In this document: one piece after another, positions 2,102 to 18,054 of the stretch
Position numbering within the stretch: the first letter of the stretch is position 1
How the letters are laid out: each line of letters starts with the position of its first letter
Source: a virus
Taxonomy: Duplodnaviria; Caudoviricetes
DNA length: 25,673 nt
Direction: 5' to 3' (one strand)
IMG/VR virus record: IMGVR_UViG_3300025653_004941
Location: 1-25,673 of that record
The notes under the pieces: generated by a model
The model's input: only the letters and a program-made list of their open reading frames with translations
Told to the model about the DNA's origin: nothing
The model's database searches: none
Translations under genes and position numbers: made by a program

Positions 2102-4761
2102 GTTACATAGACGCATTATTCAAAAAAGATGAAGACAAGATATACGTGGTAGAACGTGATGCCAAGAAAGGCAGAATATTTACGGAGTATGATGCAAGGT
2201 ACGTGTTCTACTACGAGGACGCAAGGGGCAAACACAGATCAATGACTGGTGCTCCATTACAGAGGGTGCAGTGTGCAACCAACAAAGAGTTCATTAAAGA
2301 ACAGAGGATAAGATCCAACAAACAACTGTACGAGAATGATATCAATCCTGTGTTCAGATGCCTGGAAGAGAACTATTTAGGCAAGGAGACCCCAAAACTA
2401 AATGTGATGTTTTTCGATATTGAAGTTGACTTCGATCCAGATCGAGGTTATTCAACAACAGATGATCCGTTCATGCCCATAACTGCCATAAGTTGTTACA
2501 TGAGCTGGACGGACCAACTGGTCACATTCGCCGTGCCACCAAAGACAATAAGCATGGCAGACGCAAAAGAACTCACAAAAAGGTTTGACAACACCATGTT
2601 GTTCGAGAAAGAGAAAGACATGTTGGATGCATTCCTGGAACTGGTGCAAGATGCAGACATACTGTCGGGTTGGAATTCAGAAGGATACGATATACCATAT
2701 ACAGTTGGCAGGATACAAAAAGTATTAAGTTCGGATGACACAAGAAGATTATGCTTCTGGGGTGAAAAACCTAGGAAGAGGGTGTTCGAAAAGTACGGTA
2801 GAGAACAGTTGAGTTTTGATCTCGTTGGACGTGTACACTTGGACTTGTTGGAACTATACAGGAAGTACACATACGAGGAAAGACACAGTTTCAGACTAGA
2901 TGCGATCGGAGAACACGAACTAGATGAGAAGAAGACAGTGTACGAGGGATCACTAGATAATTTGTACAAAAACGACTTCGGGTTGTTCATAGAATACAAT
3001 AGACAAGACACGGCACTACTGGCCAAACTTGAAAAGAAATTGAAGTTCATAGAACTTGCGAATGAGATAGCACACCAAAACACTGTGCTACTACAGACCA
3101 CAATGGGTGCTGTTGCAGTTACAGAACAAGCGATCGTAAATGAAACCCACAGGCGTGGCATGATCGTGCCAGGCAGGAAATACAAGAAAGACGGAGAAGA
3201 GAATCAACCAGCGGCAGGAGCCCATGTGGCGACACCACAAAAAGGAATACACGATTGGATTGGATCTGTTGATATCAACTCACTGTATCCTAGTGTTATT
3301 AGGGCGTTGAACATGGGTCCGGAAACAATCGTGGGCCAGATAAGGCCGGTGATAACATCGGCAGAGATCAACAGGGCTAAATCTCAGAAGAAATCATTTG
3401 CGGCCGCATGGGACAGCCAATTTGGATCGTGGGAGTACCAAGCGGTCATGAACAAAGAAAAAGGCACAGAGATCATAGTGGACTACGAAGACAAGACCAG
3501 TGTGCGTATGAGTGCGGCACAACTGTATGACATAATTTTTGATGGCAACAACAAATGGATGTTGAGTGCAAACGGCACAATATTCACATACGAATATGAA
3601 GCGGTCATACCAGGCTTACTAAAACGTTGGTATGAAGAAAGACAGGATATGCAGAGAAAAATGCGTGAGTGTGGAGACAACGAGATCGAAAGGGAATATT
3701 GGGACAAGAGACAGTTGGTCAAGAAGATTAATCTGAACAGTCTGTATGGTGCGATATTGAATCCAGGATGTAGATTCTTTGACATAAGGATTGGTCAGAG
3801 TGTGACCCTCACAGGCAGATGTATCACACAGCACATGGCAAGCAAAACCAATGAGATTATTTCAGGCAAGTATGATCACAAAGGAGAAAGCATCGTGTAC
3901 GGAGACACGGACTCGGTTTACTTTACAGCACACAAGACACTGCAGAAAGAGATCAACGAGGGATTGATTCCATGGACGAAAGATTCTGTTGTATCGTTGT
4001 ATGACAAGATTGCAGATGAGGTCAACGGATCGTTCAAGGCATTCATGACGAAAGGTTTTCACTGTCCAAGCACCAGAGGTGGAGTGATTGCGGCGGGCAG
4101 GGAACTTGTTGCATCCAAGGGTTTGTTCATAACAAAGAAAAGATATGCGGTGCTTTATTACGACAAGGAAGGAAAGCGTACAGACGTCGAAGGCAAAGAC
4201 GGCAAGATGAAAGCAATGGGACTAGATCTCAAACGTTCAGACACACCAGTGTTCGTGCAAGACTTTCTGAGTGAGATATTGTACATGGTACTACAAGGCA
4301 AGGATGAAAAAGATGTACTAGATAGGATCAGTGAATTCAGGGCAGAGTTCAAATCAAGGCCAGGTTGGGAGAAGGGATCTCCCAAGAGGGCAAACAACAT
4401 GACCAAATACACAGCGGCCGAAGAGAAGTCCGGTAGGGCAAACATGCCCGGACACGTGAGGGCCAGCATGAACTGGAATAGGTGCAGGGAGATGTACGGC
4501 GACAAGTACTCGATGCCAATAACGGATGGTGCCAAGGTGATCGTGTGTAAACTAAAACAGAACCCATTGGGTTACACCAGTATCGCATACCCCGTTGATG
4601 AGATGCGTATACCAGAGTGGTTCAAGGAACTGCCGTTTGATGGTGATGCCATGGAGGCAACGATACTGGACCAGAAACTGGACAACCTCATAGGTGTGTT
4701 GGGTTGGGATATACAGTCAACAGAGACCACAAACACATTCAACAAACTGTTCGAATTCTAA
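2098..4761 (+). CDS. polB: Family B DNA polymerase with 3'-5' exonuclease (T4 gp43-like)
   Basis: ExoI FDIEVD, ExoII GWNSEGYDIPY, ExoIII YNRQD; polymerase motifs DINSLYPS, KINLNSLYG, YGDTDS, KKRY. Confidence 0.97.
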   Translation: MSYIDALFKKDEDKIYVVERDAKKGRIFTEYDARYVFYYEDARGKHRSMTGAPLQRVQCATNKEFIKEQRIRSNKQLYENDINPVFRCLEENYLGKETPKLNVMFFDIEVDFDPDRGYSTTDDPFMPITAISCYMSWTDQLVTFAVPPKTISMADAKELTKRFDNTMLFEKEKDMLDAFLELVQDADILSGWNSEGYDIPYTVGRIQKVLSSDDTRRLCFWGEKPRKRVFEKYGREQLSFDLVGRVHLDLLELYRKYTYEERHSFRLDAIGEHELDEKKTVYEGSLDNLYKNDFGLFIEYNRQDTALLAKLEKKLKFIELANEIAHQNTVLLQTTMGAVAVTEQAIVNETHRRGMIVPGRKYKKDGEENQPAAGAHVATPQKGIHDWIGSVDINSLYPSVIRALNMGPETIVGQIRPVITSAEINRAKSQKKSFAAAWDSQFGSWEYQAVMNKEKGTEIIVDYEDKTSVRMSAAQLYDIIFDGNNKWMLSANGTIFTYEYEAVIPGLLKRWYEERQDMQRKMRECGDNEIEREYWDKRQLVKKINLNSLYGAILNPGCRFFDIRIGQSVTLTGRCITQHMASKTNEIISGKYDHKGESIVYGDTDSVYFTAHKTLQKEINEGLIPWTKDSVVSLYDKIADEVNGSFKAFMTKGFHCPSTRGGVIAAGRELVASKGLFITKKRYAVLYYDKEGKRTDVEGKDGKMKAMGLDLKRSDTPVFVQDFLSEILYMVLQGKDEKDVLDRISEFRAEFKSRPGWEKGSPKRANNMTKYTAAEEKSGRANMPGHVRASMNWNRCREMYGDKYSMPITDGAKVIVCKLKQNPLGYTSIAYPVDEMRIPEWFKELPFDGDAMEATILDQKLDNLIGVLGWDIQSTETTNTFNKLFEF

Positions 4762-4764
4762 ATA
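4759..4764 (+). promoter_or_regulatory. Putative phage late-type promoter element (TAAATA)
   Basis: CTAAATA overlaps the pol stop codon, 5 nt before ATG 4770; resembles the T4 late TATAAATA box and recurs upstream of other genes. Confidence 0.4.
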
Positions 4765-4769
4765 CCGTT

Positions 4770-5567
4770 ATGTTAAGCATTGAAGAAATAAAATTATTGA
4801 TTGAAAAACTAGAAAAAGTCAAAAAAGAAGATTTACAGGAGTTGATAGACTCAAATTTACAAATTTTAAAAGACATAGAGCTGGCCGTCGACGCCAACAA
4901 CAAAGAGGTAATAGACAGATTGGACAAGACTCCCGAATGGTACAACAGAGACCGAGAACAAAAATTGAAAAAACCCATGGTGGATCCTATCACTGAAAGA
5001 CAGGTACAGAGTAAAATATTCCAGTTCGCAAGGACAAATCTCTACAACAGCCTTGAGATTGGACCAGGTAATGGCATGTTCTCCATGGACTTCAGGGCAT
5101 GGAGGTTGAATTACTTCCTAGACATTACCCATGCCGTTGAGAGACCAATACTGGAGAAGTTCAATCCTGCACATAGAAAATATCTAAAATTCTACAAGAC
5201 ACGCAACACCGAGTGTTCAAACATTCCACAGGGCAGTTGCAACTTTGTTTTCAGTTGGGACACATTTGTTTTCTTCACACAACAACACGTGCAACAGTAT
5301 TTGCACGACATCAAGAGGGTGCTGATCCCCGGTGGTTATTGCTTCATACAGTATGCAGATTGCCACTATGATGTTGAACTGGAACTGGCCAAGAGGGGAT
5401 ATTGGAACTACAACACCAAGACCGCCATGACACAGATGATCAAGGACGAGGGTTATGAGATTGTGGAGATGAATCAGTTCAGACCTGGCGCTAGTTACGC
5501 CATATTCAGAAAACCTGGTAAACAAAATCCAGTCGTGTACAAAGTTTCTGAAATAACACTAGACTAA
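4770..5567 (+). CDS. Class I SAM-dependent methyltransferase with N-terminal coiled coil
   Basis: Motif I LEIGPGNG, NFVFSWDTF, and LHDIKRVLIPGG. Start moved from 4704 to ATG 4770, after the pol stop. Confidence 0.8.
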   Translation: MLSIEEIKLLIEKLEKVKKEDLQELIDSNLQILKDIELAVDANNKEVIDRLDKTPEWYNRDREQKLKKPMVDPITERQVQSKIFQFARTNLYNSLEIGPGNGMFSMDFRAWRLNYFLDITHAVERPILEKFNPAHRKYLKFYKTRNTECSNIPQGSCNFVFSWDTFVFFTQQHVQQYLHDIKRVLIPGGYCFIQYADCHYDVELELAKRGYWNYNTKTAMTQMIKDEGYEIVEMNQFRPGASYAIFRKPGKQNPVVYKVSEITLD

Positions 5568-5588
5568 GATCTAAATATAGTATACACT
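5560..5588 (+). promoter_or_regulatory. sigma70-type promoter with CTAAATA in the spacer
   Basis: TAGACT (5560-5565), 17-nt spacer, TACACT (5583-5588); CTAAATA at 5571-5577. Confidence 0.5.
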
Positions 5589-5597
5589 ACAAACATT

Positions 5598-6335
5598 ATG
5601 ATAGACATCTTAAAAGACATCGTTAAACATACGCATGGACTGGGATTCTTGGATCTTGTCAAGATCACTGGGGACGATAAGGAAACTTCAATCGACTCAA
5701 TGGCCGAAGACAGATCTGTGATCCTACAAGGGTCTTTCCACAAGCCACAGGCAGAGATGTCTGGTACGTTTGGAATGCCTCAGATGGGCAAGTTAGACAT
5801 CCACCTGAAGTGTCCCGAGTACAAGGAGAAAGCAAACATAACTGTGTTGTCAGGTGAGAGAGCCGGGGCAACAGTTCCCACAGGAATCCATTTCGAGAAT
5901 GAAAAGGGTGACTTCAAGAACGACTACAGGTTCATGAATGCCGAGATCATCAACGAGAAACTTAAGACCGTCAAGTTCAAAGGTGTTAAGTGGGACGTTG
6001 AGATCGAACCAGGAATGGCAAGTGTGCAGAGATTCAACTTCCAGGCAACAGCAAACACAGAACACAACTCATTCGTTGTTAGGACCGAGGATGGAAACTT
6101 GATTTTCACTTTCGGTGACCAGGCATCGCATGGTGGTGAATTCGTGTTCGCAACTGACGTTAAGGGAACACTTAACAAAGGTTGGAGTTGGCCGGTAGGA
6201 CAGGTGCTACAAATACTTAAACTATCAGACTCGGCAAAGGTCACATTACACTTCTCTAACGAGGGTGCGATGCAGGTCTCCGTTGATTCGGGACTGGGCA
6301 AGTATCAATACATCATACCAGCACAGGCGCAATAA
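5598..6335 (+). CDS. Probable sliding clamp / polymerase processivity factor (gp45/PCNA-like)
   Basis: 245 aa with an alternating helix/beta pattern typical of clamps; C-terminal YQYIIPA strand; located near polB. Confidence 0.6.
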   Translation: MIDILKDIVKHTHGLGFLDLVKITGDDKETSIDSMAEDRSVILQGSFHKPQAEMSGTFGMPQMGKLDIHLKCPEYKEKANITVLSGERAGATVPTGIHFENEKGDFKNDYRFMNAEIINEKLKTVKFKGVKWDVEIEPGMASVQRFNFQATANTEHNSFVVRTEDGNLIFTFGDQASHGGEFVFATDVKGTLNKGWSWPVGQVLQILKLSDSAKVTLHFSNEGAMQVSVDSGLGKYQYIIPAQAQ

Positions 6336-7783
6336 TGACGACAGATAATAGTAAGCAGGAACACCTAGGGGAGTTGAGCAGAGACTTCGCGGTGTTCTTG
6401 CCTGCTATATCTAACTTCTACAACACGTTTATCAGCAAACAGAGAGTCACAGAAGGCAAACACATAGCCGAAGAGAGAATTCCAAAGACATTTGAAAATG
6501 GCGTGGAGTCATTGAACTTCATAAATCCAGACAAAGGTATGTTTACATACCCCACAGCACTTTACTCGGCAGGACATGCCTGCTTAAACATGGATCAAGT
6601 GAATGACCGGGATCACATGTTCGTCAACAGGGATAGAAAGTTCAGCACGATAGTGGGCGATTCAGGTGGATATCAGATAGGAAAAGGTGTCATTAAATTT
6701 GATTGGAAAGATTTTGAGGGTAACAAGGCAAACAAAGTGAGATCAGACATACTCAACTGGTTGGAACTAACAAGCGACTGGGCAATGACACTGGACGTGC
6801 CAACATGGGCGGCGGATGACCTTAACAGTCCAAAGACTGGATTGACCAGTTTCCAGGACACATTGGACGGTACCATATACAACAACAAGTTCTTCCAAAA
6901 GAACAGGTTAGGACAAACAAAATTATTGAATGTTCTACAAGGTGATGACTGGAACACAGCACAGATATGGTATGATGCTGTAAAAGATTTCGAATTCGAA
7001 GGATGGGCAATGGGTGGTATTAACATGTGTGACATGGAAGTGATGCTGAAACGTCTGATCATAATGAGAGATGAGAAGAAACTTGACGGCAAGGACTGGA
7101 TGCACGTACTTGGAACTTCGCAGATGGATTGGGGTTGTTATCTCACACAGGTTCAAAGGCAGGTTAGGAAACATATCAATCCAAACTTCACAATCAGTTT
7201 TGACAGTGCATCAGCATTCCTATCGACTGCAAATGGACTTGTTTACACACACAACTCGTTCTCTCCAGACAGGTGGTCATTCGTAATGGATAAAGCACCA
7301 GACGATAAAGCGTTGAAAGGATCCGAAATTCAATTTCCATTTGATAGTGGTGTTGGACGTAGACTGAAGATGAAAGATGTCTGTTGGTATGGTGAGAATG
7401 ACCTAAATAAAAACGGAAAGGTTGGAGCAACAAGTTGGGACAGTTTCAGTTATGTGCTGATGATGGCACACAACGTATACAACCAGATCAGAGCGATACA
7501 GATCGCAAATGATCTAAACGACATAGAATCTATGAAATACCGACCTGAGGTCAAACACTGGCGTAAAACAAAGGCAAGTGACAAGACGGATGAACCAAGC
7601 ATATATGTTCCAAGGAACATACTGTATTTCAACACGTTTGTTGAAGAAGTGTTTACAAGTGAGAAACCAATGGACGTGATCGCAGGTGCATCAAGTTATC
7701 TAGCAGACATCAGGGGCAACAGATGGGCCAGGGCAACAGGTGGTGGCAAAGGCACAAACAATTTCAGTTCTTTATTTGAATAG
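6335..7783 (+). CDS. dpdA: TGT-fold guanine transglycosylase, DpdA-like (probable DNA 7-deazaguanine insertase)
   Basis: TGT motifs in order: GDSGGYQ, MTLDVP, NVLQG, GWAMGG, MHVLG, ISFDSAS, late AHN; clustered with folE and queE. Confidence 0.75.
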   Translation: MTTDNSKQEHLGELSRDFAVFLPAISNFYNTFISKQRVTEGKHIAEERIPKTFENGVESLNFINPDKGMFTYPTALYSAGHACLNMDQVNDRDHMFVNRDRKFSTIVGDSGGYQIGKGVIKFDWKDFEGNKANKVRSDILNWLELTSDWAMTLDVPTWAADDLNSPKTGLTSFQDTLDGTIYNNKFFQKNRLGQTKLLNVLQGDDWNTAQIWYDAVKDFEFEGWAMGGINMCDMEVMLKRLIIMRDEKKLDGKDWMHVLGTSQMDWGCYLTQVQRQVRKHINPNFTISFDSASAFLSTANGLVYTHNSFSPDRWSFVMDKAPDDKALKGSEIQFPFDSGVGRRLKMKDVCWYGENDLNKNGKVGATSWDSFSYVLMMAHNVYNQIRAIQIANDLNDIESMKYRPEVKHWRKTKASDKTDEPSIYVPRNILYFNTFVEEVFTSEKPMDVIAGASSYLADIRGNRWARATGGGKGTNNFSSLFE

Positions 7784-7792
7784 GAGGACACA

Positions 7793-7996
7793 ATGAGGCT
7801 AACAAAGAGAAGAAGCAAGAAAGTTAAAAAACTCGAAGAAGAGCATCAGTATCTTGACAAAAAGGTAAAACAACTTACCAAAGACAGGCTGAAGGACCGT
7901 AGTTCAGAAAGCAAAGACGTGTTGAATAGGTTGAAAAGGATGAAATTGATCATCAAAGATGCCATCGCTAGAGCAAAGTCCACGTTGACAAAATAA
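7793..7996 (+). CDS. Small coiled-coil protein, YdcH/DUF465-like
   Basis: LEEEHQYLDKKV...LKRMKLIIKDAI pattern; AGGAGG SD. Confidence 0.6.
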   Translation: MRLTKRRSKKVKKLEEEHQYLDKKVKQLTKDRLKDRSSESKDVLNRLKRMKLIIKDAIARAKSTLTK

Positions 7997-8013
7997 CCGT
8001 TTAGTAATATAAT
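7985..8013 (+). promoter_or_regulatory. Consensus sigma70 promoter, probably giving a leaderless mRNA
   Basis: TTGACA (7985-7990), 17-nt spacer, TATAAT (8008-8013); ATG at 8019. Confidence 0.85.
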
Positions 8014-8018
8014 AAGGT

Positions 8019-8570
8019 ATGGACAGAGATTATAAAACGGGCAAGAGTGAAACTGTAGGTGTTTTTTCAGGATTAGAAGTGGAACATACCCCGGCACTTG
8101 GTAAACAAACACTTTTCTTGGCAAGGAACGATCTTACGTTTGATGACATCAAAGAACTTGCACAATCAGTGAATGCGGAAGCAATCTACTATGGAGCAAA
8201 CAGATCTTATATGCACAATCATGGCATGCAACTTTCACAAATGAAGAGATTGATAGAAGATGGTTACTATGTCACTGTCGATTACGACTACAGCATACAC
8301 AAGGAAGTCAAAGAAAAATTCAAGATGTTGTGGCAAAACGAAAAGTTTATCCCTTTCTGTTCAATAATATTTCCAAATTCCGAGGACGATGACCAACTTT
8401 GTATAAAGGTCGATGACGTTGACTTCAACAAGACCAACCCAGGTGTTTGGACCATGAGCATGGATCACTTCAAACAAACTTCAGGTTTCACTTCATGGAA
8501 GGAATACAAACAAGACGAACCAATACAGGAGAACAAATGGACACTGAGCACCAACACGATCAAGCACTAA
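8019..8570 (+). CDS. Hypothetical protein, possibly a degenerate QueE-like partial barrel without the Fe-S motif
   Basis: Clear ORF with its own promoter; VFSGLEVEHTPALGKQTLFL and LIEDGYYVTVD echo QueE segments; no CxxxCxxC. Confidence 0.55.
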   Translation: MDRDYKTGKSETVGVFSGLEVEHTPALGKQTLFLARNDLTFDDIKELAQSVNAEAIYYGANRSYMHNHGMQLSQMKRLIEDGYYVTVDYDYSIHKEVKEKFKMLWQNEKFIPFCSIIFPNSEDDDQLCIKVDDVDFNKTNPGVWTMSMDHFKQTSGFTSWKEYKQDEPIQENKWTLSTNTIKH

Positions 8571-8977
8571 AAGAACAGGCAAATAAAGGCAGTAAGATGA
8601 TATGGGTAACATTCCGTAAGGAAGGCATCCACAAGTATCCCGCGGCACTGGACGATCCAAAACTGGCGACGGGTGATGAGTATGATGTCAGTTTCCTGGG
8701 ACACCCACACAGACACATATTCCATTTCAAGGTTGCTATAGAAGTGTTCCACGATGACAGAGACATAGAATTCATACAGTTCAAGAGATGGATGGAGAAC
8801 ATGTACGCGGACGGCACGATGAAACTGGATTACAAGAGCTGTGAGATGATATCCGATGATCTATATGTGGCGATCGCAAAGAGATATCCAGGCAGGAAGA
8901 TCGAGATAGACGTGAGCGAGGATGGCGAGAATGGAAGCCACGCAGTTTACGAAAAACCAGTGATGGGTGGAATATAA
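8537..8977 (+). CDS. dpdL: QueD/PTPS-like T-fold paralog with LxxxHRHxF (DpdL-like, putative CDG decarboxylase)
   Basis: EGIH, LGHPHRHIF (8696-8722), SCE and VSED match the QueD layout but lack CxxxHGH. Start at ATG 8537 after AGGAG (8527-8531). Confidence 0.65.
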   Translation: MDTEHQHDQALKEQANKGSKMIWVTFRKEGIHKYPAALDDPKLATGDEYDVSFLGHPHRHIFHFKVAIEVFHDDRDIEFIQFKRWMENMYADGTMKLDYKSCEMISDDLYVAIAKRYPGRKIEIDVSEDGENGSHAVYEKPVMGGI

Positions 8978-9303
8978 TGAAAGAAGTACAGATCAAAGAA
9001 AAACGAGCGACCACGAGGATGGGACACCTGCCCATAGAGGGTGGTGGACTTAATGCGGGTTACGACACTGTTGACGCAGTGGCCAACATCTGCACCACGG
9101 CGGGCAACCTCGGAATGAAGTACGGCAAGGACTTCATATGGTCACACACAGGATTCAGTGATGATGATGCAATGGACGACACGATAACACTGTTAGTCAA
9201 GGACGACAAGTACGAGTCTTTCCTGCATCTGGCATTACAGAATACACACAAGATAAAACACACAAACGACGGTACAATCAAACTAATCAAGGAGAGAAGA
9301 TAA
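8977..9303 (+). CDS. Hypothetical protein
   Basis: 108 aa, TAATG-coupled on both sides; no recognisable motif. Confidence 0.7.
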
Positions 9304-9725
9304 TGGACCTAAAAGAAAGTAAAACAGCAGAAAACCTTAAAGACGCTTTCGCGGGAGAAAGCCAAGCAAACAGAAGATACCTGTACTTCGCACAGAAGGC
9401 CGACATAGAAGGAGCACCAGACGTTGCGGCGGTGTTCAGAAGCACAGCGGAAGGTGAAACAGGACACGCACACGGACACCTGGAGTACCTAGAAGAAGTT
9501 GGAGATCCAGCAACAGGTGAAAAGATGGGTGAAACAGAAGACAACCTTAAATCTGCCATCGCAGGCGAGACGCACGAGTACACAGACATGTACCCGGGCA
9601 TGGCTAGAACTGCCAGAGAAGAAGGCTTCGAGGAGATCGCTGACTGGTTCGAGACACTAGCCAAGGCCGAGAAGTCACACGCGGGTAAATTCCAGAGAAC
9701 GCTAGATGCGTACAAAGGAGCATAA
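9303..9725 (+). CDS. rbr: Rubrerythrin (short form, no rubredoxin domain)
   Basis: [21 protein letters not shown] and EKSH di-iron ligands. Confidence 0.93.
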
Positions 9726-10255
9726 TGAGAGTACCATACACTAACTTTAAAACAAGAACAGGCGACGATACTGCAATTGGCGGTTGCGGATTCATAGGCG
9801 GTGAATGGAAAGATTTAGACACAGCAGAAATTTTCGATAACAAGAAGGTCGTTGTGTTTGCACTACCCGGAGCATTCACACCAACTTGTAGTTCACAACA
9901 ACTACCAGGATACGAAGAAATGTATGATGAGTTCAAGGCACAAGGCATAGACGAAGTATATTGCTTGTCAGTAAATGATGCATTTGTAATGAACGCATGG
10001 TTCAAGAATCAGGACATTAAAAAAGTCAAACCACTTGGTGATGGCGAAGGCGTTTTCACACAAGGAGCAGGGTTCCTTGTAAGCAAACCAGCACAGGGGT
10101 TTGGCATGAGATCTTGGAGATACTCAATGCTAGTTGACAATGGCGAGATAATCAAACAGTTTGTTGAAGAAGGACAAAACAACTCAAGTGATGACAATGA
10201 TCCGTTTGAAGTGTCAGACGCAAAAACAATGCTTGATTTTGTAAAAAGTAGATAA
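9725..10255 (+). CDS. Peroxiredoxin, Prx5-type
   Basis: [10 protein letters not shown] active site, [15 protein letters not shown]. Confidence 0.93.
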
Positions 10256-10575
10256 TGTATAAACCACTGCCAGACGGATTAACTATAAAAGATTCTGAAT
10301 TGCAAGGATTAGGATTATTTGCTACGCAAGGTTTCGATGCTGATGTGGTATTAGGAATAGTACACATCAAGAATAAAAATTTTCCACATGGAGCAATCAG
10401 AACGGCCTTGGGTGCATTTTACAACCATTCAGACAACCCCAACTGTAAGAATGTTGCAGGTTTTTGGCATCAATTGCCTGTGAAGTACCTAATTACAACT
10501 AAACCCATTAAAGAAGGAGAAGAACTAACAGCGGCGTACACTTTGTACAAAGATTTTAATGACAAGTGGGAATAG
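10255..10575 (+). CDS. Minimal SET-domain protein (lysine methyltransferase fold)
   Basis: SELQGLGLFAT, FYNHSDNPN, IKEGEELTAAY. Confidence 0.85.
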   Translation: MYKPLPDGLTIKDSELQGLGLFATQGFDADVVLGIVHIKNKNFPHGAIRTALGAFYNHSDNPNCKNVAGFWHQLPVKYLITTKPIKEGEELTAAYTLYKDFNDKWE

Positions 10576-10587
10576 ATCTGTTATACT
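10559..10587 (+). promoter_or_regulatory. sigma70 extended -10 promoter, probably leaderless
   Basis: ATGACA (10559-10564), 17-nt spacer, TG-n-TATACT (10582-10587); ATG at 10594; no SD. Confidence 0.7.
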
Positions 10588-10593
10588 GATACT

Positions 10594-11763
10594 ATGAAAA
10601 TATTTTACATGGGCCTAGAGCCATACGAAGGCAGATACACATTACAGTTGCAGGACTGGACTGAACGTGCATACAAGAAAAGAGGAATAGATTACGTTGT
10701 GGTACCAGGTACGACAATAGACGACACAAAAGCAATCAGTGTAGGACAGGTACTTGACGCACACGGAAGATCATACTTTGGTATGAGCCAGATGATGAAT
10801 CTTGTACAGATGATGCGTAATGGTGAGGTAACGAAGAACGACATCATATTCTTTGAAGACATGTTCCAGCCAGGCATGGAATCATTGCCTTACATATTGA
10901 ATCAAGTAGAAGCGAAACACAGACCAACGATATACCTGAGATGTCTTGCACAGGCCATAGACCCAGATGACTTCGTGCATGTATGGGGCATGAGCAAGTG
11001 GATGAGCATGTATGAACAGATGTGCAACGAAATTCCCAATGTCAACATACTTGCAACTAACGAAGAGATGGTGGCACACATGAGGATAGCAAATTGGTCA
11101 GCACCAATATACAACATATCAGGATTGAGCTTTGGCAAGGAAGAAGTACAGAGTAGAGTACCAGACAGGAAGCCTTTCATAGAAAGGAAACAGAGAGTGA
11201 TTTTTGGAGCGAGATGGGATCAAGAGAAACAGCCACAGTTCTACATGGAACTGGCCGCTAAATTCAAGGAGACACATCCGGATGTTGAATTCGCGATATG
11301 TCAAGGTGGACCTCTGAGATCCAACAACGACTACTACGTGAAAGAAGCAAAATATCTTGAGAAGCAAGGCATATTGACAATACATGAGAACTTGAAGAAG
11401 AACGAGTACTACGAACTACTCGCAGACTCGAGGGTGATGTTCAACTGTGCTTTACAGGACTGGGTGTCAAACACAGTGAGTGAAGCAGACGCAATGGGTT
11501 GCAACACCCTGTTTCCGGCATACAGATCATTCCCGGAGACGTTCGCAAATGACCACACGAGGATGTATGTTCCATGGTCGCAACAAGACGCAATGGAAAA
11601 ACTAGAAGTATTATTAAGCAAACCATCCCCTAGTATAGGCAAGATTTCTGACTGGACCGACGGTACCATAGACAGGATGATTGACATTATGACAGGCAAG
11701 GGAGAACAATGGAGAAGAGATGGAAGACACTACAGGACACCAGTTTCAGAAGCCAAGTATTAA
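10594..11763 (+). CDS. GT-B fold (GT4-like) glycosyltransferase
   Basis: VIFGARWDQEKQP, EYYELLADSRV, and QDWVSNTVSEA (a variant of the ExxGxxxxEA motif). Confidence 0.75.
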   Translation: MKIFYMGLEPYEGRYTLQLQDWTERAYKKRGIDYVVVPGTTIDDTKAISVGQVLDAHGRSYFGMSQMMNLVQMMRNGEVTKNDIIFFEDMFQPGMESLPYILNQVEAKHRPTIYLRCLAQAIDPDDFVHVWGMSKWMSMYEQMCNEIPNVNILATNEEMVAHMRIANWSAPIYNISGLSFGKEEVQSRVPDRKPFIERKQRVIFGARWDQEKQPQFYMELAAKFKETHPDVEFAICQGGPLRSNNDYYVKEAKYLEKQGILTIHENLKKNEYYELLADSRVMFNCALQDWVSNTVSEADAMGCNTLFPAYRSFPETFANDHTRMYVPWSQQDAMEKLEVLLSKPSPSIGKISDWTDGTIDRMIDIMTGKGEQWRRDGRHYRTPVSEAKY

Positions 11764-12751
11764 AGGCGTAAGTAAAGCAGTGCTAGTCACGGGCGGTGCC
11801 GGTTATGTTGGCTCACACACGTGTAAACTGCTTGCCATTAATGGATTCACACCAGTCACGGTAGATAGGCACTTCAGAGAAGGTCTGAAGTCATTTGGAC
11901 CAAACTACAATTTAAACCTCCCACAGGAGATGGACAGGATTGACGAGATCGTCAAAAGGTACAACATTACCAGTTGCATACATTTCGCGGGTAGCACCAG
12001 TGTACCTGAGAGTGTTGCCAATCCTTCATTGTATTACAAGAACAATTTGATCATGACCATATCATTACTGGACAAACTGATCGAGTGTGGGGTCAAAACT
12101 TTCGTTTACAGTTCCAGTGCGGCCACTTACGGTGATCCAGGAATGCAGTTGGCCATGGAGTCAGACGTTGCCAATCCAATCAGTGCATACGGTGGTAGCA
12201 AACTGATGATAGAGATGGTGTGTAAGGATTACCTGAGGGCATATGGATTGTCCAGTGTGGGTTTGAGATATTTCAATGCCGCTGGTGCAGATCCAGAAGG
12301 CGAAGTTGGAGAGCTACGAGAGAAAGAGACACACATCATACCACTGGCCATAACGGCCGCCAAGCAAGGCAAAACATTCAAGATATTTGGTGACAAGTAT
12401 CCAACAGATGACGGAACATGTGTAAGGGATTACGTGCATGTGATGGATTTGGCAGACGCACACATAAAAGCATTGAATCACGCTTCAAAGAATCCAGTGG
12501 CGGAGGTGTTCAACTTGGGTTCAGGAGAACCTTCTTCCAACAAGCAGTTGATAGAAGCAGTGCAGAAACACGCAGGTGAGATGAAGGTGGAGATGCATGA
12601 CAACAGACCTGGAGATCCAGCATATCTAGTGGCGGACACCAGCAAGGTGAAGGAAATTTTAGAGTGGGAGCCCACACAGAGCAGTCTTGACAACGTGGTG
12701 GCAACTGCTGTACAATGGTATAACAAGACGCACAAAAAGGATATACAATAA
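11720..12751 (+). CDS. galE: UDP-glucose 4-epimerase
   Basis: VTGGAGYVGSH, HFAG, SSSAATYG, YGGSK, LRYFNAAG, DGTCVRDYVHV. Confidence 0.93.
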   Translation: MEDTTGHQFQKPSIKGVSKAVLVTGGAGYVGSHTCKLLAINGFTPVTVDRHFREGLKSFGPNYNLNLPQEMDRIDEIVKRYNITSCIHFAGSTSVPESVANPSLYYKNNLIMTISLLDKLIECGVKTFVYSSSAATYGDPGMQLAMESDVANPISAYGGSKLMIEMVCKDYLRAYGLSSVGLRYFNAAGADPEGEVGELREKETHIIPLAITAAKQGKTFKIFGDKYPTDDGTCVRDYVHVMDLADAHIKALNHASKNPVAEVFNLGSGEPSSNKQLIEAVQKHAGEMKVEMHDNRPGDPAYLVADTSKVKEILEWEPTQSSLDNVVATAVQWYNKTHKKDIQ

Positions 12752-13464
12752 TGAGTGAAGACATTTTAAAAGACAGTTGGGTACCAGAAGGCCCTGTTAG
12801 TAAAAAGATCAAAGACAGGATAAAGAAAGCAGGCAAGAGATTCCATTCCAATGACAACATCTCTGAATTCATAGAAGAAGGAGAGATGGATCTGCTACAG
12901 GCAGAGGTACAGGAGAAACTGCAGGGTGTGTTAGACAGTCTTGTGATCGACACAGAAAACGATCACAACACACAGGAGACTGCGAAGCGTGTGGCCAAGA
13001 TGTACATCAGAGAAACTTTTGGTGGTAGATTCAAGCCAGCACCGAGGGTCACAAGTTTTCCCAACATGGGGTACAAGAGCATGTACACCAGTGGACCAAT
13101 ATCGATCAGGTCAACCTGTGCCCACCACTTCCAGAACATTGTGGGTAGAGCATGGGTAGGTATCATTCCAAATGGTGAGGTGATAGGATTGAGTAAATTC
13201 AACAGGATAGTACATCACATAGTGGAGAGACCCCAGATACAGGAAGAAATGACAACACAGATTGCCGAAGAATTGAAGAAATACGCAAAGACAGAAAATC
13301 TTGCAGTGGTAGTAAAAGCAGAACACCATTGTATGACACACAGAGGTGTGAGAGAACATGAGTCGGACATGACAACTGCAATCATGTTGGGTGCTTTCAA
13401 AGAAGATCCTGCTACAAGGGATGAATTCTACAAAATCTGTATGAGCATGAAGGGTCATGACTAA
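12751..13464 (+). CDS. folE: GTP cyclohydrolase I
   Basis: ETAKRVAKMY, STCAHH, GLSKFNR, RPQIQE, AEHHCMTHRG. Confidence 0.95.
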   Translation: MSEDILKDSWVPEGPVSKKIKDRIKKAGKRFHSNDNISEFIEEGEMDLLQAEVQEKLQGVLDSLVIDTENDHNTQETAKRVAKMYIRETFGGRFKPAPRVTSFPNMGYKSMYTSGPISIRSTCAHHFQNIVGRAWVGIIPNGEVIGLSKFNRIVHHIVERPQIQEEMTTQIAEELKKYAKTENLAVVVKAEHHCMTHRGVREHESDMTTAIMLGAFKEDPATRDEFYKICMSMKGHD

Positions 13465-13762
13465 GAAGACTAAAGAACAAATTAAAAAACAACAAGCAAA
13501 CATGCAATCTGACAACATGGAAATGGCCGGTTGGAGTGAAGGACTAACAACAGGTGGCGTTGTAGAGACAGCGACAGTGGATTTTGATTCACCGGATACT
13601 GGCTTCTCATACAGTTATGGAGATCTTGGCGACATGGGACAGTTGGATCTGTTTGACGAGATGGACTTGAGGGACAAGTACCCTGCATTGAACCAGGCAT
13701 GGGAACACTACCAGAGTGTGTTAGAAGTTTGTAAAACAAAGGAAAAAGAAGATGAGAATTAA
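13457..13762 (+). CDS. Acidic hypothetical protein with a QLDLF motif
   Basis: 101 aa; acidic, probably disordered middle; C-terminal helix KYPALNQAWEHY; overlaps both neighbours. Confidence 0.65.
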   Translation: MTKKTKEQIKKQQANMQSDNMEMAGWSEGLTTGGVVETATVDFDSPDTGFSYSYGDLGDMGQLDLFDEMDLRDKYPALNQAWEHYQSVLEVCKTKEKEDEN

Positions 13763-14801
13763 TACGGAACCTAAACTCAATTTCGAGGACGTGTTGCTAC
13801 AGCCAAAACGTTCAACACTGTCTAGCAGGCGAGATGTTGACATGACTCGTAAGTTCACGTTCCGCAATTCAGGTAAGGTCATGGATTTCCTTCCCATATT
13901 CGCAAGTAACATGGATGGTGTTGGCACATTCTCAATGGCCAAGGAAATGCAGAAGCACAAGATGATGACCGTTATAACAAAGACCACAACACCAGAACAA
14001 TGGAAAGAGGCCGCAGGCACAGGATTGAGAATGCAGTCAGTGTCAGTGTGTACGGGAACCAATGTTATGTGGGATCCGGAAGCACCTGATTGGGCGACCA
14101 TGAATAAAGTTTTAGAAATGTTCCCAGATGTCAAGATGATCACTGTTGATGTTGCAAACGCATATCATCAGAACATGGTGGACTTCATTAAAAAAGTAAG
14201 AGACGAATATCCAGACAAAGTCATCATAGCAGGAAACGTGGTCACACCTGAGATGACAGAAGAATTGATTATAAATGGTGCTGACGTGGTCAAGATAGGT
14301 ATTGGTCCAGGTTCTGTATGCACCACAAGAACAATGACTGGCGTTGGTGTACCACAGTTCTCGGCGATAGTTGACTGTTCAGATGCCGCGAACGGTGTTG
14401 GCGGACACATAATGGCAGACGGTGGTTGTGTGTATCCAGGAGACATAGCAAAAGCATTTGGTGGAGGAGCCCACATGGTCATGATAGGTGGTATGTTGGC
14501 AGGACACGACGAGTCAGAACAGCCAGTTGTTGATGGCAAGATAGAATTCTATGGCATGAGCTCAGACAGGGCTCGTGAGAAACACGGCAAACGCAAGGAC
14601 GGATACAGAGGCAACGAGGGTAGATTGATATCTTTGCCTCATCGTGGACCGGTTGGACCAACCTTGGAAGACATACTGGGTGGAGTCAGGAGTGCCTGCA
14701 CATACATAGGTGCGAGAAGACTCAAAGACATGGCCAAGTGTGCAAGTTTCGTCACAACCAACAACGTGATCAACAGGGTCTATGAGCGATACACCAAATA
14801 A
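13752..14801 (+). CDS. guaC: GMP reductase
   Basis: DVLLQPKRSTLSSR, ASNMDGVG, VDVANAY, KIGIGPGSVCTTR, ADGGC, FYGMSS; no CBS domains. Confidence 0.93.
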   Translation: MRINTEPKLNFEDVLLQPKRSTLSSRRDVDMTRKFTFRNSGKVMDFLPIFASNMDGVGTFSMAKEMQKHKMMTVITKTTTPEQWKEAAGTGLRMQSVSVCTGTNVMWDPEAPDWATMNKVLEMFPDVKMITVDVANAYHQNMVDFIKKVRDEYPDKVIIAGNVVTPEMTEELIINGADVVKIGIGPGSVCTTRTMTGVGVPQFSAIVDCSDAANGVGGHIMADGGCVYPGDIAKAFGGGAHMVMIGGMLAGHDESEQPVVDGKIEFYGMSSDRAREKHGKRKDGYRGNEGRLISLPHRGPVGPTLEDILGGVRSACTYIGARRLKDMAKCASFVTTNNVINRVYERYTK

Positions 14802-15114
14802 CATAGAGCCAATCAAGGAGAAACTGGACGACAAGATCAAGAAGTTGAATTCTTCAAGGGTGATCAAGAAAGTGACACCCAAGGGAGACCTGTCTTGGTA
14901 CGTGAAATGGGTTTCGGTGTTCTTTATATTAGTAGCGACAGCGGCCAGGAGTGTGGGCACAATACCACACATCGACATGTGGTTTGGTCTAGTAGGCACA
15001 GTGGGTTGGGCATGGGTTGGATACCTATGGCACGACAGGGCACTGTTGTTCCTGAATGCAATACTGGTCACACTATTGATCATAGGATTAATGAATTATT
15101 ATTTTGGGATATGA
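14782..15114 (+). CDS. Small membrane protein (about 3 TM)
   Basis: WYVKW followed by hydrophobic helices and WHDRAL. Confidence 0.7.
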   Translation: MSDTPNNIEPIKEKLDDKIKKLNSSRVIKKVTPKGDLSWYVKWVSVFFILVATAARSVGTIPHIDMWFGLVGTVGWAWVGYLWHDRALLFLNAILVTLLIIGLMNYYFGI

Positions 15115-15575
15115 GCGAAGAAGTTAAGAAGAATTATTTCACCACAGGACAGATGCGTAACGCACTGATCCAGATCGAAGACAAGATGGTGCACAGCAAC
15201 TGGATGCCAAGCATCATACTGGGCATCAACAGGGGTGGTTGCATACCTGGTGTGTACCTGTCGCACAGACTCAAGACAGCTCATGAAGTACTTGACGTGA
15301 GACTTAGGGATCACACCGCCAAACCTGACCTGCGTGTTTTAGAAAAGGCATTCGCATTCCAGAAGAAGATATTGATCATAGACGACATCAACGATTCCGG
15401 GGCAACGTTCCAGTACATACTGGACAACTTCGGCAAACGTGAAGACAGGATAAGATTCGCCGCACTGATCAACAACAAACCCAGCCGGGTCAAAGTAGAT
15501 TACCACGGTTACGAGATAAACAAGGACGAAGTGCCTAGTTGGATCGTATTCCCATGGGAAGAGTGGGACAAGTAG
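15111..15575 (+). CDS. Type I purine phosphoribosyltransferase (xanthine-guanine PRT-like)
   Basis: LGINRGG, PRPP loop ILIIDDINDSGAT, WIVFPWE; start set at the ATGA overlap at 15111. Confidence 0.88.
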   Translation: MSEEVKKNYFTTGQMRNALIQIEDKMVHSNWMPSIILGINRGGCIPGVYLSHRLKTAHEVLDVRLRDHTAKPDLRVLEKAFAFQKKILIIDDINDSGATFQYILDNFGKREDRIRFAALINNKPSRVKVDYHGYEINKDEVPSWIVFPWEEWDK

Positions 15576-15588
15576 ACCAAAGGTTGTA

Positions 15589-15617
15589 TTGACCTTATTC
15601 CAATATACTGCTACAAT
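15589..15617 (+). promoter_or_regulatory. sigma70 extended -10 promoter
   Basis: TTGACC (15589-15594), 17-nt spacer, TG-n-TACAAT (15612-15617); AGGAG at 15641-15645. Confidence 0.75.
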
Positions 15618-15650
15618 TACAGACATTTAAATTAACCTATAGGAGATTAA

Positions 15651-16259
15651 ATGTTCAAAAACGTAGACAAATCAATGCTGATGAAACTGGTGTTACTACA
15701 TGTTGTAGTGATCACAGTTTCAAATGCGTTAGTGGCCATTCCAGTTGAAATATTTGGAATTAAATTAACGTGGGCGGCATTCACATTCCCATTAGTTGTT
15801 ATAGCAACTGACTTGACTGTAAGACTTTTGGGCAAACACATAGCCAGAGCCACAATCGCGGCGGCATATCCATTAGCAATAATTGGATCCATCGCAGTAG
15901 TGTTGGCGGAAGGCGCACCACAATCGGTTGCATTAAGGATTGGTTTCGCAAGTGCCACTGCTTACGCGATCGGCACTTTGCTTGACGTGTATGTATTCCA
16001 GTACATCAGGGAATCAAAGACGTACGGCAAGAACTGGTGGATGGCTCCAGCGGTATCAACAATCGCGGCCAACATAATCGACACTTACACATTCTTTGCA
16101 GTTGCATTTAACAACAGCGCCGACGAGTACATGGCGGCGAACTGGGTTGAGATCGCGGGATCGCAAGTGGTGTTGAAAATCATAGTGGGATTGGTTGTGT
16201 TCTTACCAGCATACGGATTATTGCTGAACAGACTACAGAAGACCTACAAACTCAAATAA
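15651..16259 (+). CDS. yhhQ: Queuosine-precursor (preQ0/preQ1) transporter, VUT family
   Basis: SNALV, TWAAFTFP, ATDLTVRLLG, LDVYVF, IDTYTFFAVAF; about 6 TM. Confidence 0.9.
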   Translation: MFKNVDKSMLMKLVLLHVVVITVSNALVAIPVEIFGIKLTWAAFTFPLVVIATDLTVRLLGKHIARATIAAAYPLAIIGSIAVVLAEGAPQSVALRIGFASATAYAIGTLLDVYVFQYIRESKTYGKNWWMAPAVSTIAANIIDTYTFFAVAFNNSADEYMAANWVEIAGSQVVLKIIVGLVVFLPAYGLLLNRLQKTYKLK

Positions 16260-16265
16260 TCTCTA

Positions 16266-16285
16266 GGGGGAGTTTTTGCTCCCCC
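16266..16285 (+). terminator. GC-rich hairpin (possible terminator or processing stem)
   Basis: GGGGGAG / TTTTTG loop / CTCCCCC just after the yhhQ stop; no U-tract follows. Confidence 0.4.
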
Positions 16286-16287
16286 CA

Positions 16288-16317
16288 TTGACAACTCATC
16301 TAAATATCCTATATAAT
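16288..16317 (+). promoter_or_regulatory. sigma70 promoter with CTAAATA in the spacer
   Basis: TTGACA (16288-16293), 18-nt spacer, TATAAT (16312-16317); CTAAATA at 16300-16306. Confidence 0.75.
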
Positions 16318-16341
16318 ATTGAATAGGAAGGTACAAAATTT

Positions 16342-16737
16342 ATGTCAAACAAAGCAGGAAAAATCTGGGGCGAAACAGAACTTATATTAGCAAACAATTC
16401 ACTGGAGTTCCACAGGATAGATTACAAGAAAGGTGGGGTGTGCTCCAAGCACCTGCACGAATGGAAGTGGAACGGGTTCTATGTGATGAGCGGACAGATG
16501 AAGATCCGTGTGTGGCAGAAGGACTACGACCTAGTAGACGAAACAATATTGAATCCAGGAGACTTCACTGCTGTGAAGCCTGGTTTATATCATTCATTCG
16601 AAGGACTGGAGGACGGAGTCGCCTTTGAACTTTACTGGGCGAATTTCTCCGTGCATGATATTAAAAGAGAATCGGTCGGACATCTCAAAGATGTTGACAA
16701 TAAAGTTGTGAGGCTGGACAAGAACAAGAAAAAATAA
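16342..16737 (+). CDS. Cupin-domain protein (sugar isomerase-like)
   Basis: KIWG, CSKHLH...FYVMSG, LNPGDFTAVKPGLYHSF cupin motifs. Confidence 0.8.
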   Translation: MSNKAGKIWGETELILANNSLEFHRIDYKKGGVCSKHLHEWKWNGFYVMSGQMKIRVWQKDYDLVDETILNPGDFTAVKPGLYHSFEGLEDGVAFELYWANFSVHDIKRESVGHLKDVDNKVVRLDKNKKK

Positions 16738-16738
16738 G

Positions 16739-17164
16739 GTGAACATATACACAATATACGCTGATCACAAAGAAAACATCTCGGCTCTCAATTTTGTTAG
16801 AAAGATGAGTTTATTCCTGGACGCCCTTGTGCTACACAAAAAAATGGTGTGTTACAGGATCACCAGGATGAAACTGGGATTCAGATCCATGGACTTACCA
16901 GAATTCAGGATCGATATGGAGTTCGAATCAATGCAACAACTCGACGACGCCATGGAAATTACCATGTCAGATAAGGGTGTTGACAAGACACACGTTGGAT
17001 TCAATCAATACGTGGACAAGGACACAATACAGCATTTCCTTTACCGTGATTATCCAGATGATCTAAATAAACCAAAGTTGACTGAAAAACAAAATCCATA
17101 TACAATAGACGAAGTAGTCAAGGCAACAAAAAATATAGATCCGGAAATATGGAACAAGGGTTAG
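16739..17164 (+). CDS. Hypothetical protein (possible alpha+beta barrel, DUF6614-like)
   Basis: GTG start right after the cupin stop; YRITRMKLG...EFRIDMEF...QLDDA. Confidence 0.6.
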   Translation: MNIYTIYADHKENISALNFVRKMSLFLDALVLHKKMVCYRITRMKLGFRSMDLPEFRIDMEFESMQQLDDAMEITMSDKGVDKTHVGFNQYVDKDTIQHFLYRDYPDDLNKPKLTEKQNPYTIDEVVKATKNIDPEIWNKG

Positions 17165-18054
17165 AAAAAAAATATTACTATTCAGAGATATTCCACAGCA
17201 TACAAGGCGAAGGACACTACACAGGTGTTCCGACCGCTTGGATAAGATTCTTCTTGTGCAACTTACAGTGTAGTGGATTTGGACAAATCGATCCAACTGA
17301 TCCAAGCACGTATGAATTGCCATTCGAAGACTTTGATGTTGATAGTGTGCAAAGGGTAGAAGACTTACCAGTGTGGGAGAAAGGTTGCGATTCCAGTTAC
17401 ACATGGGCAAAGAAGTTCAAGAAACTGATGGGATATGAAACACCCACTGTACTAGCAAACAAGATCGTAGATATATTAAAGACAGACACAAATGCACATG
17501 GATTGTTCTTACATCCAAACTCTAGGCAACATCAACACCTATGTTTCACTGGTGGGGAACCATTGATGATCACAGGACAGGCCGCGAGTATGGGCATATA
17601 CAGAGAACTCAAAAAACAAGCAAACCTGCCAAGTTCGATGACGTTTGAGACCAACGGCACACAGAAACTTACAGGTCCATTCAAACAGTGGGTCAAGGAC
17701 ATACCGGAGGAGATATTCTTCAGTGTGAGTCCAAAACTATTCACAGTATCAGGCGAGAAAACGGAAAAAGCAATCAAGCCAGGGAACGTGAAGGAATACG
17801 CAGAGTGTAGCAACAGAGGGCAACTGAAATTCGTTGTTGGATCAGAAAGACGACAGTGGGAAGAACTAGAGAACACCGTGAACAAATTCAGAGACGCCGG
17901 CGTGGATTGGCCAGTATGGATAATGCCCACTGGTGCAAGGGAAGAAGAGCAGACCGCAACCGCTGGTAAGGTGGCGGAGGAGGCATTCAAGAGAGGATAC
18001 AATGTTTCTGCAAGGGTTCACGTGTACCTTTTTGGTAATGCAATTGGCACATAA
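17149..18054 (+). CDS. queE: 7-carboxy-7-deazaguanine synthase (radical SAM)
   Basis: SEIFHSIQGEG, IRFFLCNLQC...GCDS, FTGGEP, FETNGT, SVSPK, LKFVV, IMP, RVH. Confidence 0.92.
   Translation: MEQGLEKKYYYSEIFHSIQGEGHYTGVPTAWIRFFLCNLQCSGFGQIDPTDPSTYELPFEDFDVDSVQRVEDLPVWEKGCDSSYTWAKKFKKLMGYETPTVLANKIVDILKTDTNAHGLFLHPNSRQHQHLCFTGGEPLMITGQAASMGIYRELKKQANLPSSMTFETNGTQKLTGPFKQWVKDIPEEIFFSVSPKLFTVSGEKTEKAIKPGNVKEYAECSNRGQLKFVVGSERRQWEELENTVNKFRDAGVDWPVWIMPTGAREEEQTATAGKVAEEAFKRGYNVSARVHVYLFGNAIGT

Follow-up and report, generated by a model that had tools for sequence, protein, structure and literature searches.

A PA5oct-type 7-deazaguanine module with a co-travelling glycosyltransferase that may place a sugar on the DNA base of a jumbo phage lineage

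The viral record IMGVR_UViG_3300025653_004941 (Duplodnaviria; Caudoviricetes) carries a gene cluster that is predicted to exchange guanine in phage DNA for a 7-deazaguanine. The whole record of 25,673 bases is referred to here as the window, and counts of presence and absence for it cover these bases only. In addition to the genes for the transglycosylase DpdA and the QueD paralogue DpdL, the cluster contains a glycosyltransferase (GT) gene that is found next to one or the other of these two genes in unrelated phages. A deazaguanine is very probably present in the DNA of this phage; that the module is of the type found in phage PA5oct, and that its 7-deazaguanine bears a sugar, is the reading favoured here with moderate confidence. 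An earlier note on this DNA had listed dpdA, two queE-like genes, the queD paralog, glycosyltransferase, galE, folE, guaC, phosphoribosyltransferase, yhhQ and cupin genes within about 12 kb, and these are borne out by family matches, homology to PA5oct and motifs, more weakly for the smaller queE-like gene, all of them lying on the plus strand between 6335 and 18054.

In the proposed pathway, FolE, a QueD that is likely encoded at a distance, and QueE would make 7-carboxy-7-deazaguanine (CDG), which DpdL would decarboxylate to 7-deazaguanine, and DpdA would then exchange guanine in phage DNA for this base. The co-travelling GT-B enzyme would add a hexose or N-acetylhexosamine to the deazaguanine, using a UDP-galactose-type donor made by GalE. 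The sugar may be attached to the exocyclic N2, as by the huimycin enzyme HuiG on a preQ0 derivative, or to C7 after loss of CO2, and the acceptor could be either the free base, before insertion, or the DNA that already contains it; the modification would serve to escape host nucleases. That the GT acts on a deazaguanine at all, with which donor and at which position, is what we infer from gene context and conserved residues.

The glycosyltransferase and its association with dpdL

Among cultured phages, all 18 records with the GT have dpdL within about 3 kb, and the GT is found in 18 of 28 records with dpdL, or 6 of the 12 cultured dpdL lineages. The GT-bearing lineages are PA5oct-like, Phosso, ACP17, BUDD/X1, BCSR5 and BUCT-ZZ01, with the GT lying between dpdA and dpdL in both ACP17 and PA5oct. 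The lineages without it are phiST-like, RHph_I1_18, Bakedbeans, Ahp1, D479 and MA9V-3; a whole-record search with the GT profile was negative in all six GT-less cultured phages (4/4 controls positive), and five of these six lineages have a short DpdA3 of the phiST type nearby.

For IMG/VR, loci were chosen by dpdL and independently of the GT: a scan for the dpdL motif in 2 of its 64 parts gave 120 matches, 80 of them with flanking DNA. Six loci with less than 3 kb downstream and no GT were dropped, leaving 74 informative dpdL loci (individual loci are given below with the prefix L). The gene-neighbourhood analysis that the earlier note had called for shows the GT to co-occur with dpdL, in 60 of these 74 loci, and the distribution follows the type of DpdA: the GT is present in 0/12 loci with a short phiST-type DpdA3 and in 60/62 of the others. 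These 60 comprise 53 loci with a long DpdA, three with DpdA2, two of the four with a DSGA-type DpdA and two that are untyped. A pattern search for distant GT clades returned ten loci, nine with the GT and seven of these nine with dpdL; the distant GT loci mostly have folE, queE, queD and a DpdA-like gene with the DSGA motif. L260, one of three pattern matches in genome contigs, has no GT. Assemblies of Treponemataceae and Alistipes also include phage-like contigs that carry a module of dpdL, GT, queD/queE and folE (L259, L261).

The window GT (10594..11763, plus strand) is predicted to be a retaining, GT4-like enzyme of the GT-B class (Glycos_transf_1, E 4e-7), belonging to a phage family that is tied to dpdL and is large, with 897 clusters at E 0.001. 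Its structural model (predicted local distance difference test score, pLDDT, 96) has the two-Rossmann GT-B fold and matches GT4-type folds with Z 23-27 over 310-346 residues, in agreement with Foldseek (E 1e-11); the fold neighbours include sucrose-phosphate synthase (Z 26.6), BshA (25.6), a pterin glucosyltransferase (5zer, 22.9) and the T4 alpha-glucosyltransferase (AGT, 21.3). R207, K212 and D289-x7-E297 are conserved at 99-100% in 102 sequences, where the Arg and Lys presumably contact the donor phosphates and the acidic-x7-acidic element is taken to be the retaining GT-B motif. In the acceptor domain, D89, D123, D126, E141, F127 and W136 are conserved, and these acidic and aromatic residues may form a pocket for a guanine-like base. 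Neither T4 AGT nor HuiG emerged as a sequence relative of the GT in a search that found only WlaC and GlgM, and net charge proved uninformative as a test of DNA binding, since the family B DNA polymerase (PolB) and DpdA are equally acidic. In some GT loci, a second conserved gene of 440-456 aa, GT-like by eye, stands before dpdA2 or after queE (L002:7004-8347; L148, L153, L231, L284, L336).

The role proposed for the GT is like that of T4 AGT, a GT-B enzyme that acts on hydroxymethylcytosine and so puts a sugar on a DNA base. HuiG, likewise a GT-B enzyme, which attaches its sugar at the exocyclic N2, differs in that its product is a secreted metabolite. It has been reported that HuiG glycosylates a preQ0 derivative, a 7-deazapurine, with UDP-GlcNAc (bioRxiv 10.64898/2026.04.15.718813). 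The eight phage deazaguanines described by Cui et al. (2023; PMC10516641) all carry small groups. A literature search, with subscription papers, Fig. 1B and S2 of Cui et al. and bioRxiv supplements falling outside its coverage, found no paper that describes this GT, a deazaguanine glycosylated within DNA, or any DNA purine that bears a sugar. The module is a known core, of the type that yields 2'-deoxy-7-deazaguanosine (dDG), with an unpublished, putative sugar-transfer variant.

The deazaguanine core and its relatives

DpdL (8537..8977, plus strand; start set at an ATG within the TTG open reading frame (ORF) 8447-8977) is a QueD paralogue and the proposed CDG decarboxylase, matching PA5oct QCG76199.1 at 54% and phiST DpdL at 31%. 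Its motif LGHPHRHIF corresponds to LxxxHRHxF, which stands in place of the CxxxHGH of QueD, and its pocket (three His, Arg, Glu, Ser-Cys-Glu and a C-terminal Glu) is invariant in 93 aligned sequences, that of the window included. In published work, GTP is converted to CDG via FolE, QueD and QueE, the exchange of DNA bases is carried out by DpdA proteins, and DpdL with LxxxHRHxF has been proposed as the CDG decarboxylase of phages that have DpdA, FolE, QueD and QueE and are without QueC (Cui et al., 2023; PMC10516641). In that study, dDG replaces all dG in phiST, the carboxylated nucleoside dCDG is likewise reported in phage DNA, and QCG76199.1 is tabulated as DpdL.

DpdA (6335..7783, plus strand) is of the long PA5oct type, a predicted DNA guanine transglycosylase with 40% identity across 98% of its length to PA5oct QCG76197.1, which is given as DpdA3 in the table of Cui et al. 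(2023; PMC10516641). The QueC-less branch in which the pathway leaves at CDG, as the earlier note had supposed, is upheld, but the branch was already published and is not new here, the window DpdA and DpdL both matching PA5oct proteins tabulated in that study. These PA5oct matches are the best cultured ones in that lineage for 6335-7783 and 8537-8977. In 21 DpdA sequences, DSGG (D109), D154, QG, HxLG and D290 are invariant, as is HN. We take DSGG, D154, QG, HxLG and D290 to be equivalent to the catalytic and base-binding residues of tRNA-guanine transglycosylase (TGT). In the ESM Atlas the protein matches clusters of the TGT/DpdA kind (0.94; TGT name on 17% of members). It has no match in Pfam, PHROGs, NCBIfam or PADLOC (the last of which matched 0/8 proteins), and its profile matches no PDB sequence.

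The dpdA gene adjoins replication genes, its ATG overlapping the stop of a clamp-like gene, so named from the Phosso annotation of a homologue. Family B DNA polymerase (polB), a methyltransferase-like gene and this clamp-like gene (2098..6335, plus strand) stand directly 5' of dpdA, as in PA5oct. In Phosso (L093), dpdL and the GT stay beside polB and the clamp gene, at a distance of about 170 kb from the homologue of the long dpdA.

CDG synthesis is predicted for FolE (GTP cyclohydrolase I, 12751..13464, plus strand; PF01227, E 8e-47), whose start overlaps the galE stop, and for a phage-type QueE (CDG synthase, 17149..18054, plus strand; phrog_2076, E 9e-54; 36% to PA5oct QueE), in which Cys37, Cys41 and Cys80 are nearly invariant in 15 sequences. 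Four of the five genes of the dDG-type set (FolE, QueE, DpdL and DpdA) thus lie within the window, with QueD in close relatives. As the earlier note had stated, queC, queF and a CxxxHGH QueD are absent from the window: the motifs CxxxHG[HY] and SGGxDS occur in no ORF of at least 60 aa on either strand, and the QueC, QueD and QueF families have no match among 37 window ORFs scanned, the QueF search being confined to the window.

The suggestion in the same note that missing genes may lie beyond the ends of the window holds for QueD. The QueD family PF01242 is found in 2/23 close contigs, 53-54 kb upstream of dpdA in both, and these are the two that extend more than 51 kb upstream, the 21 shorter-reaching ones having none; both proteins carry HSHCxxxHGY. 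In a second contig set, QueD is present in 8/12, in three of them 52-56 kb upstream of the GT, and in many more distant relatives queD lies within the cluster. With a canonical QueD 52-56 kb upstream in five related contigs, a QueD-less pathway was rejected, and the absence of QueD from the window, which contains 6.3 kb before dpdA, is probably an artefact of the short contig.

Among the systems most like that of the window is the locus gp168-gp162 of PA5oct (Wroclawvirus), which shares polB, clamp, dpdA, dpdL, phosphoribosyltransferase, queE and the genes for RNase H-like nuclease, MoxR and vWA; the window order of polB, clamp-like gene and dpdA, and later queE, RNase H-like nuclease, MoxR and vWA, is that of PA5oct. 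In PA5oct a GT homologue (23%) of another subtype lies between dpdA and dpdL, FolE and QueD are outside the locus, and a full-length GalE and the small QueE-like ORF described below are lacking from it. PA5oct DNA has been shown to resist five restriction enzymes and is considered to contain a modified G (PMC12191111), which lends the reading favoured here indirect support. The PA5oct deazaguanine system was noted by Iyer et al. (2021; PMC7824862) in a text that, as far as it was available, mentions no GT, and the accessible part of a 2026 review of jumbo phages mentions only a predicted deazaguanine (PMC13282480). In the available version of Cui et al. (2023; PMC10516641), "glycosyl" is absent from the main text and the PA5oct GT QCG76198 from the supplement. 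The accessible part of the MIJ3 paper holds no modification data, and the literature search found nothing useful on restriction of dDG.

The phiST dDG system (PMC10516641) shares with the window FolE, QueE, DpdL with LxxxHRHxF and DpdA and, via the relatives, QueD and the lack of QueC. It differs in having a short DpdA3 of 259 aa, as opposed to 482 aa in the window (hhalign 33%), and in being without a GT of the window family, GalE and the small QueE-like gene, all three of which the window has. Short phiST-type DpdA3 genes adjoin MazG, dNMP kinase-like and dUTPase/dCTP-deaminase-like genes (L086:5439-7601, L090:6683-8085, L289, L303, L329), and judging from these neighbours full replacement by dDG in such phages may take place at the nucleotide level.

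Other relatives share the GT and not the DpdA. ACP17, BUDD, BCSR5 and BUCT-ZZ01 have the GT, DpdL and QueE beside a DpdA, which is DpdA2 instead of the long DpdA of the window. The GT of BUCT-ZZ01 is 68% identical to that of the window, and this phage adds a second GT-sized gene; the small QueE-like gene has counterparts in ACP17, BUDD and BCSR5.

Weighing a sugar-bearing base against other readings

Several observations weigh against a sugar-bearing base. The measured dDG is that of phiST, a DpdL phage without the GT, and the active-site residues of DpdL do not differ between loci that have the GT and loci that lack it, so that the identical pockets give no sign of a new product; a different DpdL chemistry in GT phages was rejected, no diagnostic residue having been found. 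The window DpdA appears only remotely like the DpdA3 of the measured product: phiST (type member CGPG_00065) is not among 13 tblastn records for the window DpdA, and by hhalign its profile compares with DpdA2 at 96% (E 5e-9) and with short phiST-type DpdA3 at 33% (E 5e-4). Being nearer to DpdA2, it does not automatically inherit the dDG result. The fold search with the GT model does not single out DNA glucosyltransferases, T4 AGT taking rank 23, below small-molecule GT4s and the pterin glucosyltransferase. The GT is absent from two loci with a DSGA-type DpdA (L264, L271), and most GT loci belong to one jumbo lineage. The split between GT and DpdA type has a naive p of 4e-12, which ignores kinship; on a quick DpdL tree (69 of 93 DpdL rows after dereplication, 120 columns) the GT state changes 12 times, with four independent pairs on supported branches, none discordant, and a sign test gives p 0.125. 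The split therefore rests on few independent events and is not significant once corrected for the tree. QueD presence and QueC absence are, in addition, read from relatives, the window's own record being 25,673 bases. In favour of the sugar-bearing base, dpdA and dpdL of ACP17, cloned without the intervening GT, formed no dDG in E. coli, which is indirect support; as the phiST pair likewise gave none (PMC10516641), the ACP17 failure is weak evidence.

The best-placed alternative, though a rather unlikely one, is that the product is plain dDG as in phiST, and that the GT and GalE glycosylate some other target, be it a protein, the host surface or a pterin that FolE forms as a by-product. Such a role would agree with the complete dDG replacement in phiST, which has the same DpdL pocket and no GT (PMC10516641), with a tetrahydrobiopterin glucosyltransferase among the fold neighbours of the GT, and with GT/epimerase clusters for surface polysaccharides in jumbo phages (PMC7824862). 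It would not predict the distribution of the GT, which in unrelated phages adjoins dpdL or dpdA when the DpdA is of any of three kinds and is missing when it is of the fourth.

Entry through the nucleotide pool is a less probable, indeed an unlikely, alternative that draws on an analogy with tubercidin clusters, which are without QueC and in which a phosphoribosyltransferase (PRTase), a decarboxylase and a GMP reductase act on CDG (bioRxiv 10.64898/2026.04.15.718813). Here the PRTase would ribosylate CDG or 7-deazaguanine, GuaC would lower GMP, and the neighbouring polymerase would incorporate the product. The PRTase and GuaC are both found in 30/30 close loci, and dpdA abuts polB and the clamp gene. 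Among 35 wider GT loci, however, each with at least 7 kb downstream, GuaC is found in 2 and the PRTase in 18; a PRTase fused to FolE in other dpdL loci would fit GTP supply, and transglycosylase-type acidic residues are kept in DpdA.

Equally unlikely is a route completed by a QueC of the host or from a distant part of the phage genome, with insertion of the deoxynucleoside forms of preQ0 (dPreQ0) or 7-amido-7-deazaguanine (dADG) and with YhhQ possibly importing the precursor. The window does encode YhhQ, and its record ends at 25.7 kb. The search for queC and queD beyond the window, proposed in the earlier note and here run on relatives, recovered QueD, whereas QueC is found in 0/23 close partial contigs (these extend as far as 125 kb upstream and, on the other side, 151 kb downstream) and is over the TIGR00364 cut-off in 0/12 long contigs, three of them at least 90% complete. 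A divergent QueC-like gene of 195 aa is present in the complete 344-kb relative G024 (L178:1486-2073; 28 bits, cut-off 150), 73 kb from the cluster, with SGGxDS and CxxCxxC; it was not found in five other contigs. The QueC family PF06508 gave weak matches in 5/24 records, BUDD, D479, G026 and G028 among those with weak QueC-family matches. YhhQ is missing from 9/30 close loci, and DpdL is a mark of QueC-less phages (PMC10516641).

That the transglycosylase acts on tRNA and leaves the DNA unmodified, as a cluster named tRNA-guanine transglycosylase among the Atlas neighbours might suggest, is highly improbable, since dpdA stands beside replication genes, no tRNA gene was found in the 25,673-base window, PA5oct DNA resists G-containing restriction enzymes (PMC12191111) and DNA modification was found in those DpdL phages for which measurements exist (PMC10516641).

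The sugar-bearing 7-deazaguanine may also be put in broader terms, and here more tentatively: a class of phages that is widespread and takes in a jumbo lineage abundant in the ocean could have a glycosylated DNA purine, a hexose-bearing 7-deazaguanine, possibly a C7 C-glycoside formed by coupled DpdL decarboxylation and GT action with a stripped QueE-like protein as partner, the type of sugar depending on the GT subtype, with additional trimming in certain phages. If true, this would be a new class of DNA hypermodification; the enzyme that the unsuccessful reconstitution with ACP17 genes had lacked would likely be the GT, the modified G of therapy-relevant PA5oct-like phages would be explained, and 'DpdA3' would split into short GT-less and long GT-coupled types. 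The earlier idea of a base beyond the known types is partly supported: dDG and dCDG are already known, a tailoring enzyme is likely in the form of the GT, and the further-elaborated base is a prediction.

Partner and neighbouring genes

The small conserved gene at 8019..8570 (plus strand) had been read as a QueE-like paralog, a claim that finds weak support. In a search with its model (pLDDT 85), three QueE structures are among the top seven fold matches, colinear over 122-128 residues with Z 5.7-6.2; these are the longest colinear matches, but their Z is below 8 and tied with unrelated folds, and Foldseek gives E 0.33. Profile comparison with QueE gives 1.9% and 8% only, the ESM Atlas gave unnamed viral clusters only, and no sequence evidence for a QueE paralogue was obtained. 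The three-cysteine iron-sulfur motif CxxxCxxC is absent, only Cys114 and Cys128 being present and neither invariant. The model suggests a QueE-like fold, and the protein is possibly a binding or scaffold subunit. The gene is found in 47/58 GT-bearing dpdL loci with enough upstream DNA and in 0/12 short-DpdA3 loci; similar small genes are neighbours of the GT in ACP17, BUDD, BCSR5 and distant loci.

GalE, a UDP-glucose 4-epimerase (11720..12751, plus strand; TIGR01179, 333 bits, cut-off 262), overlaps the 3' end of the GT gene and likely supplies its donor. The GT has two subtypes, and GalE accompanies the window subtype in 14/21 loci and the PA5oct subtype in 1/28, which suggests different donors for the two. 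In BUDD (L094:1897-3046) and BCSR5 (L095:7267-8634), a phosphoadenosine phosphosulfate (PAPS) reductase-like gene and a gene with an APHxDDE motif, which we read as deacetylase-like, precede the small ORF, the GT and dpdA2; an amino sugar may thus be trimmed further in these phages.

The PRTase (15111..15575, plus strand) is a Gpt-like purine phosphoribosyltransferase (PF00156; PRK09177 under its cut-off, the best NCBIfam match being xanthine phosphoribosyltransferase). It likely recycles released guanine toward GTP, a role that fits the fusions of a PRTase-like N-terminus to FolE read by eye in three dpdL loci (L255:4546-5457, L264:2806-3708, L340:8157-9071).

GMP reductase GuaC (13752..14801, plus strand; PRK05096, 450 bits, cut-off 397) and a cupin (16342..16737, plus strand; PF07883) are lineage-specific neighbours, and the YhhQ-family preQ0/preQ1 transporter (15651..16259, plus strand; TIGR00697, 112 bits, cut-off 51), present in 21/30 close loci, is optional. 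The cupin is in all 30 close loci, partly by construction, since these were selected to extend as far as cupin or queE. In the 35 wider GT loci, FolE is found in 30, the QueE-like ORF in 26, QueE in 20, GalE in 13, QueD in 10, YhhQ in 2 and the cupin in 1. Of the extra tailoring enzymes first supposed, those that co-occur with the module are the GT, the QueE-like ORF, GalE (where the GT is of the window subtype) and, more loosely, the PRTase; GuaC, YhhQ and the cupin do not and were rejected on that ground.

The window genes are coded on the plus strand, with GC of 36-48%. Close relatives are numerous: of 8000 scored candidates, 6121 match the window DpdA, the best match reaching 94% and having Tara as one of its sources. 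The assignment of the lineage as marine is based on the source labels of these DpdA relatives; CheckV figures for related contigs imply a genome size near 350 kb. Genes for rubrerythrin, peroxiredoxin, a SET domain, DUF465, DUF6552 and DUF6614 are interleaved in the cluster and unrelated to it, the rubrerythrin, peroxiredoxin and small SET-domain genes making up an insert (9303-10575) that separates dpdL from the GT and is variable. Two unannotated genes 5' of polB (903-2101) are shared with few relatives. The gene at 4785-5567, which lies after polB and before the clamp-like gene, encodes a SAM-dependent methyltransferase and is retained in most close loci. A radical SAM/SPASM gene lies at 18503-19531, and in some relatives (L134, L145) several paralogues of it stand inside the deazaguanine cluster.

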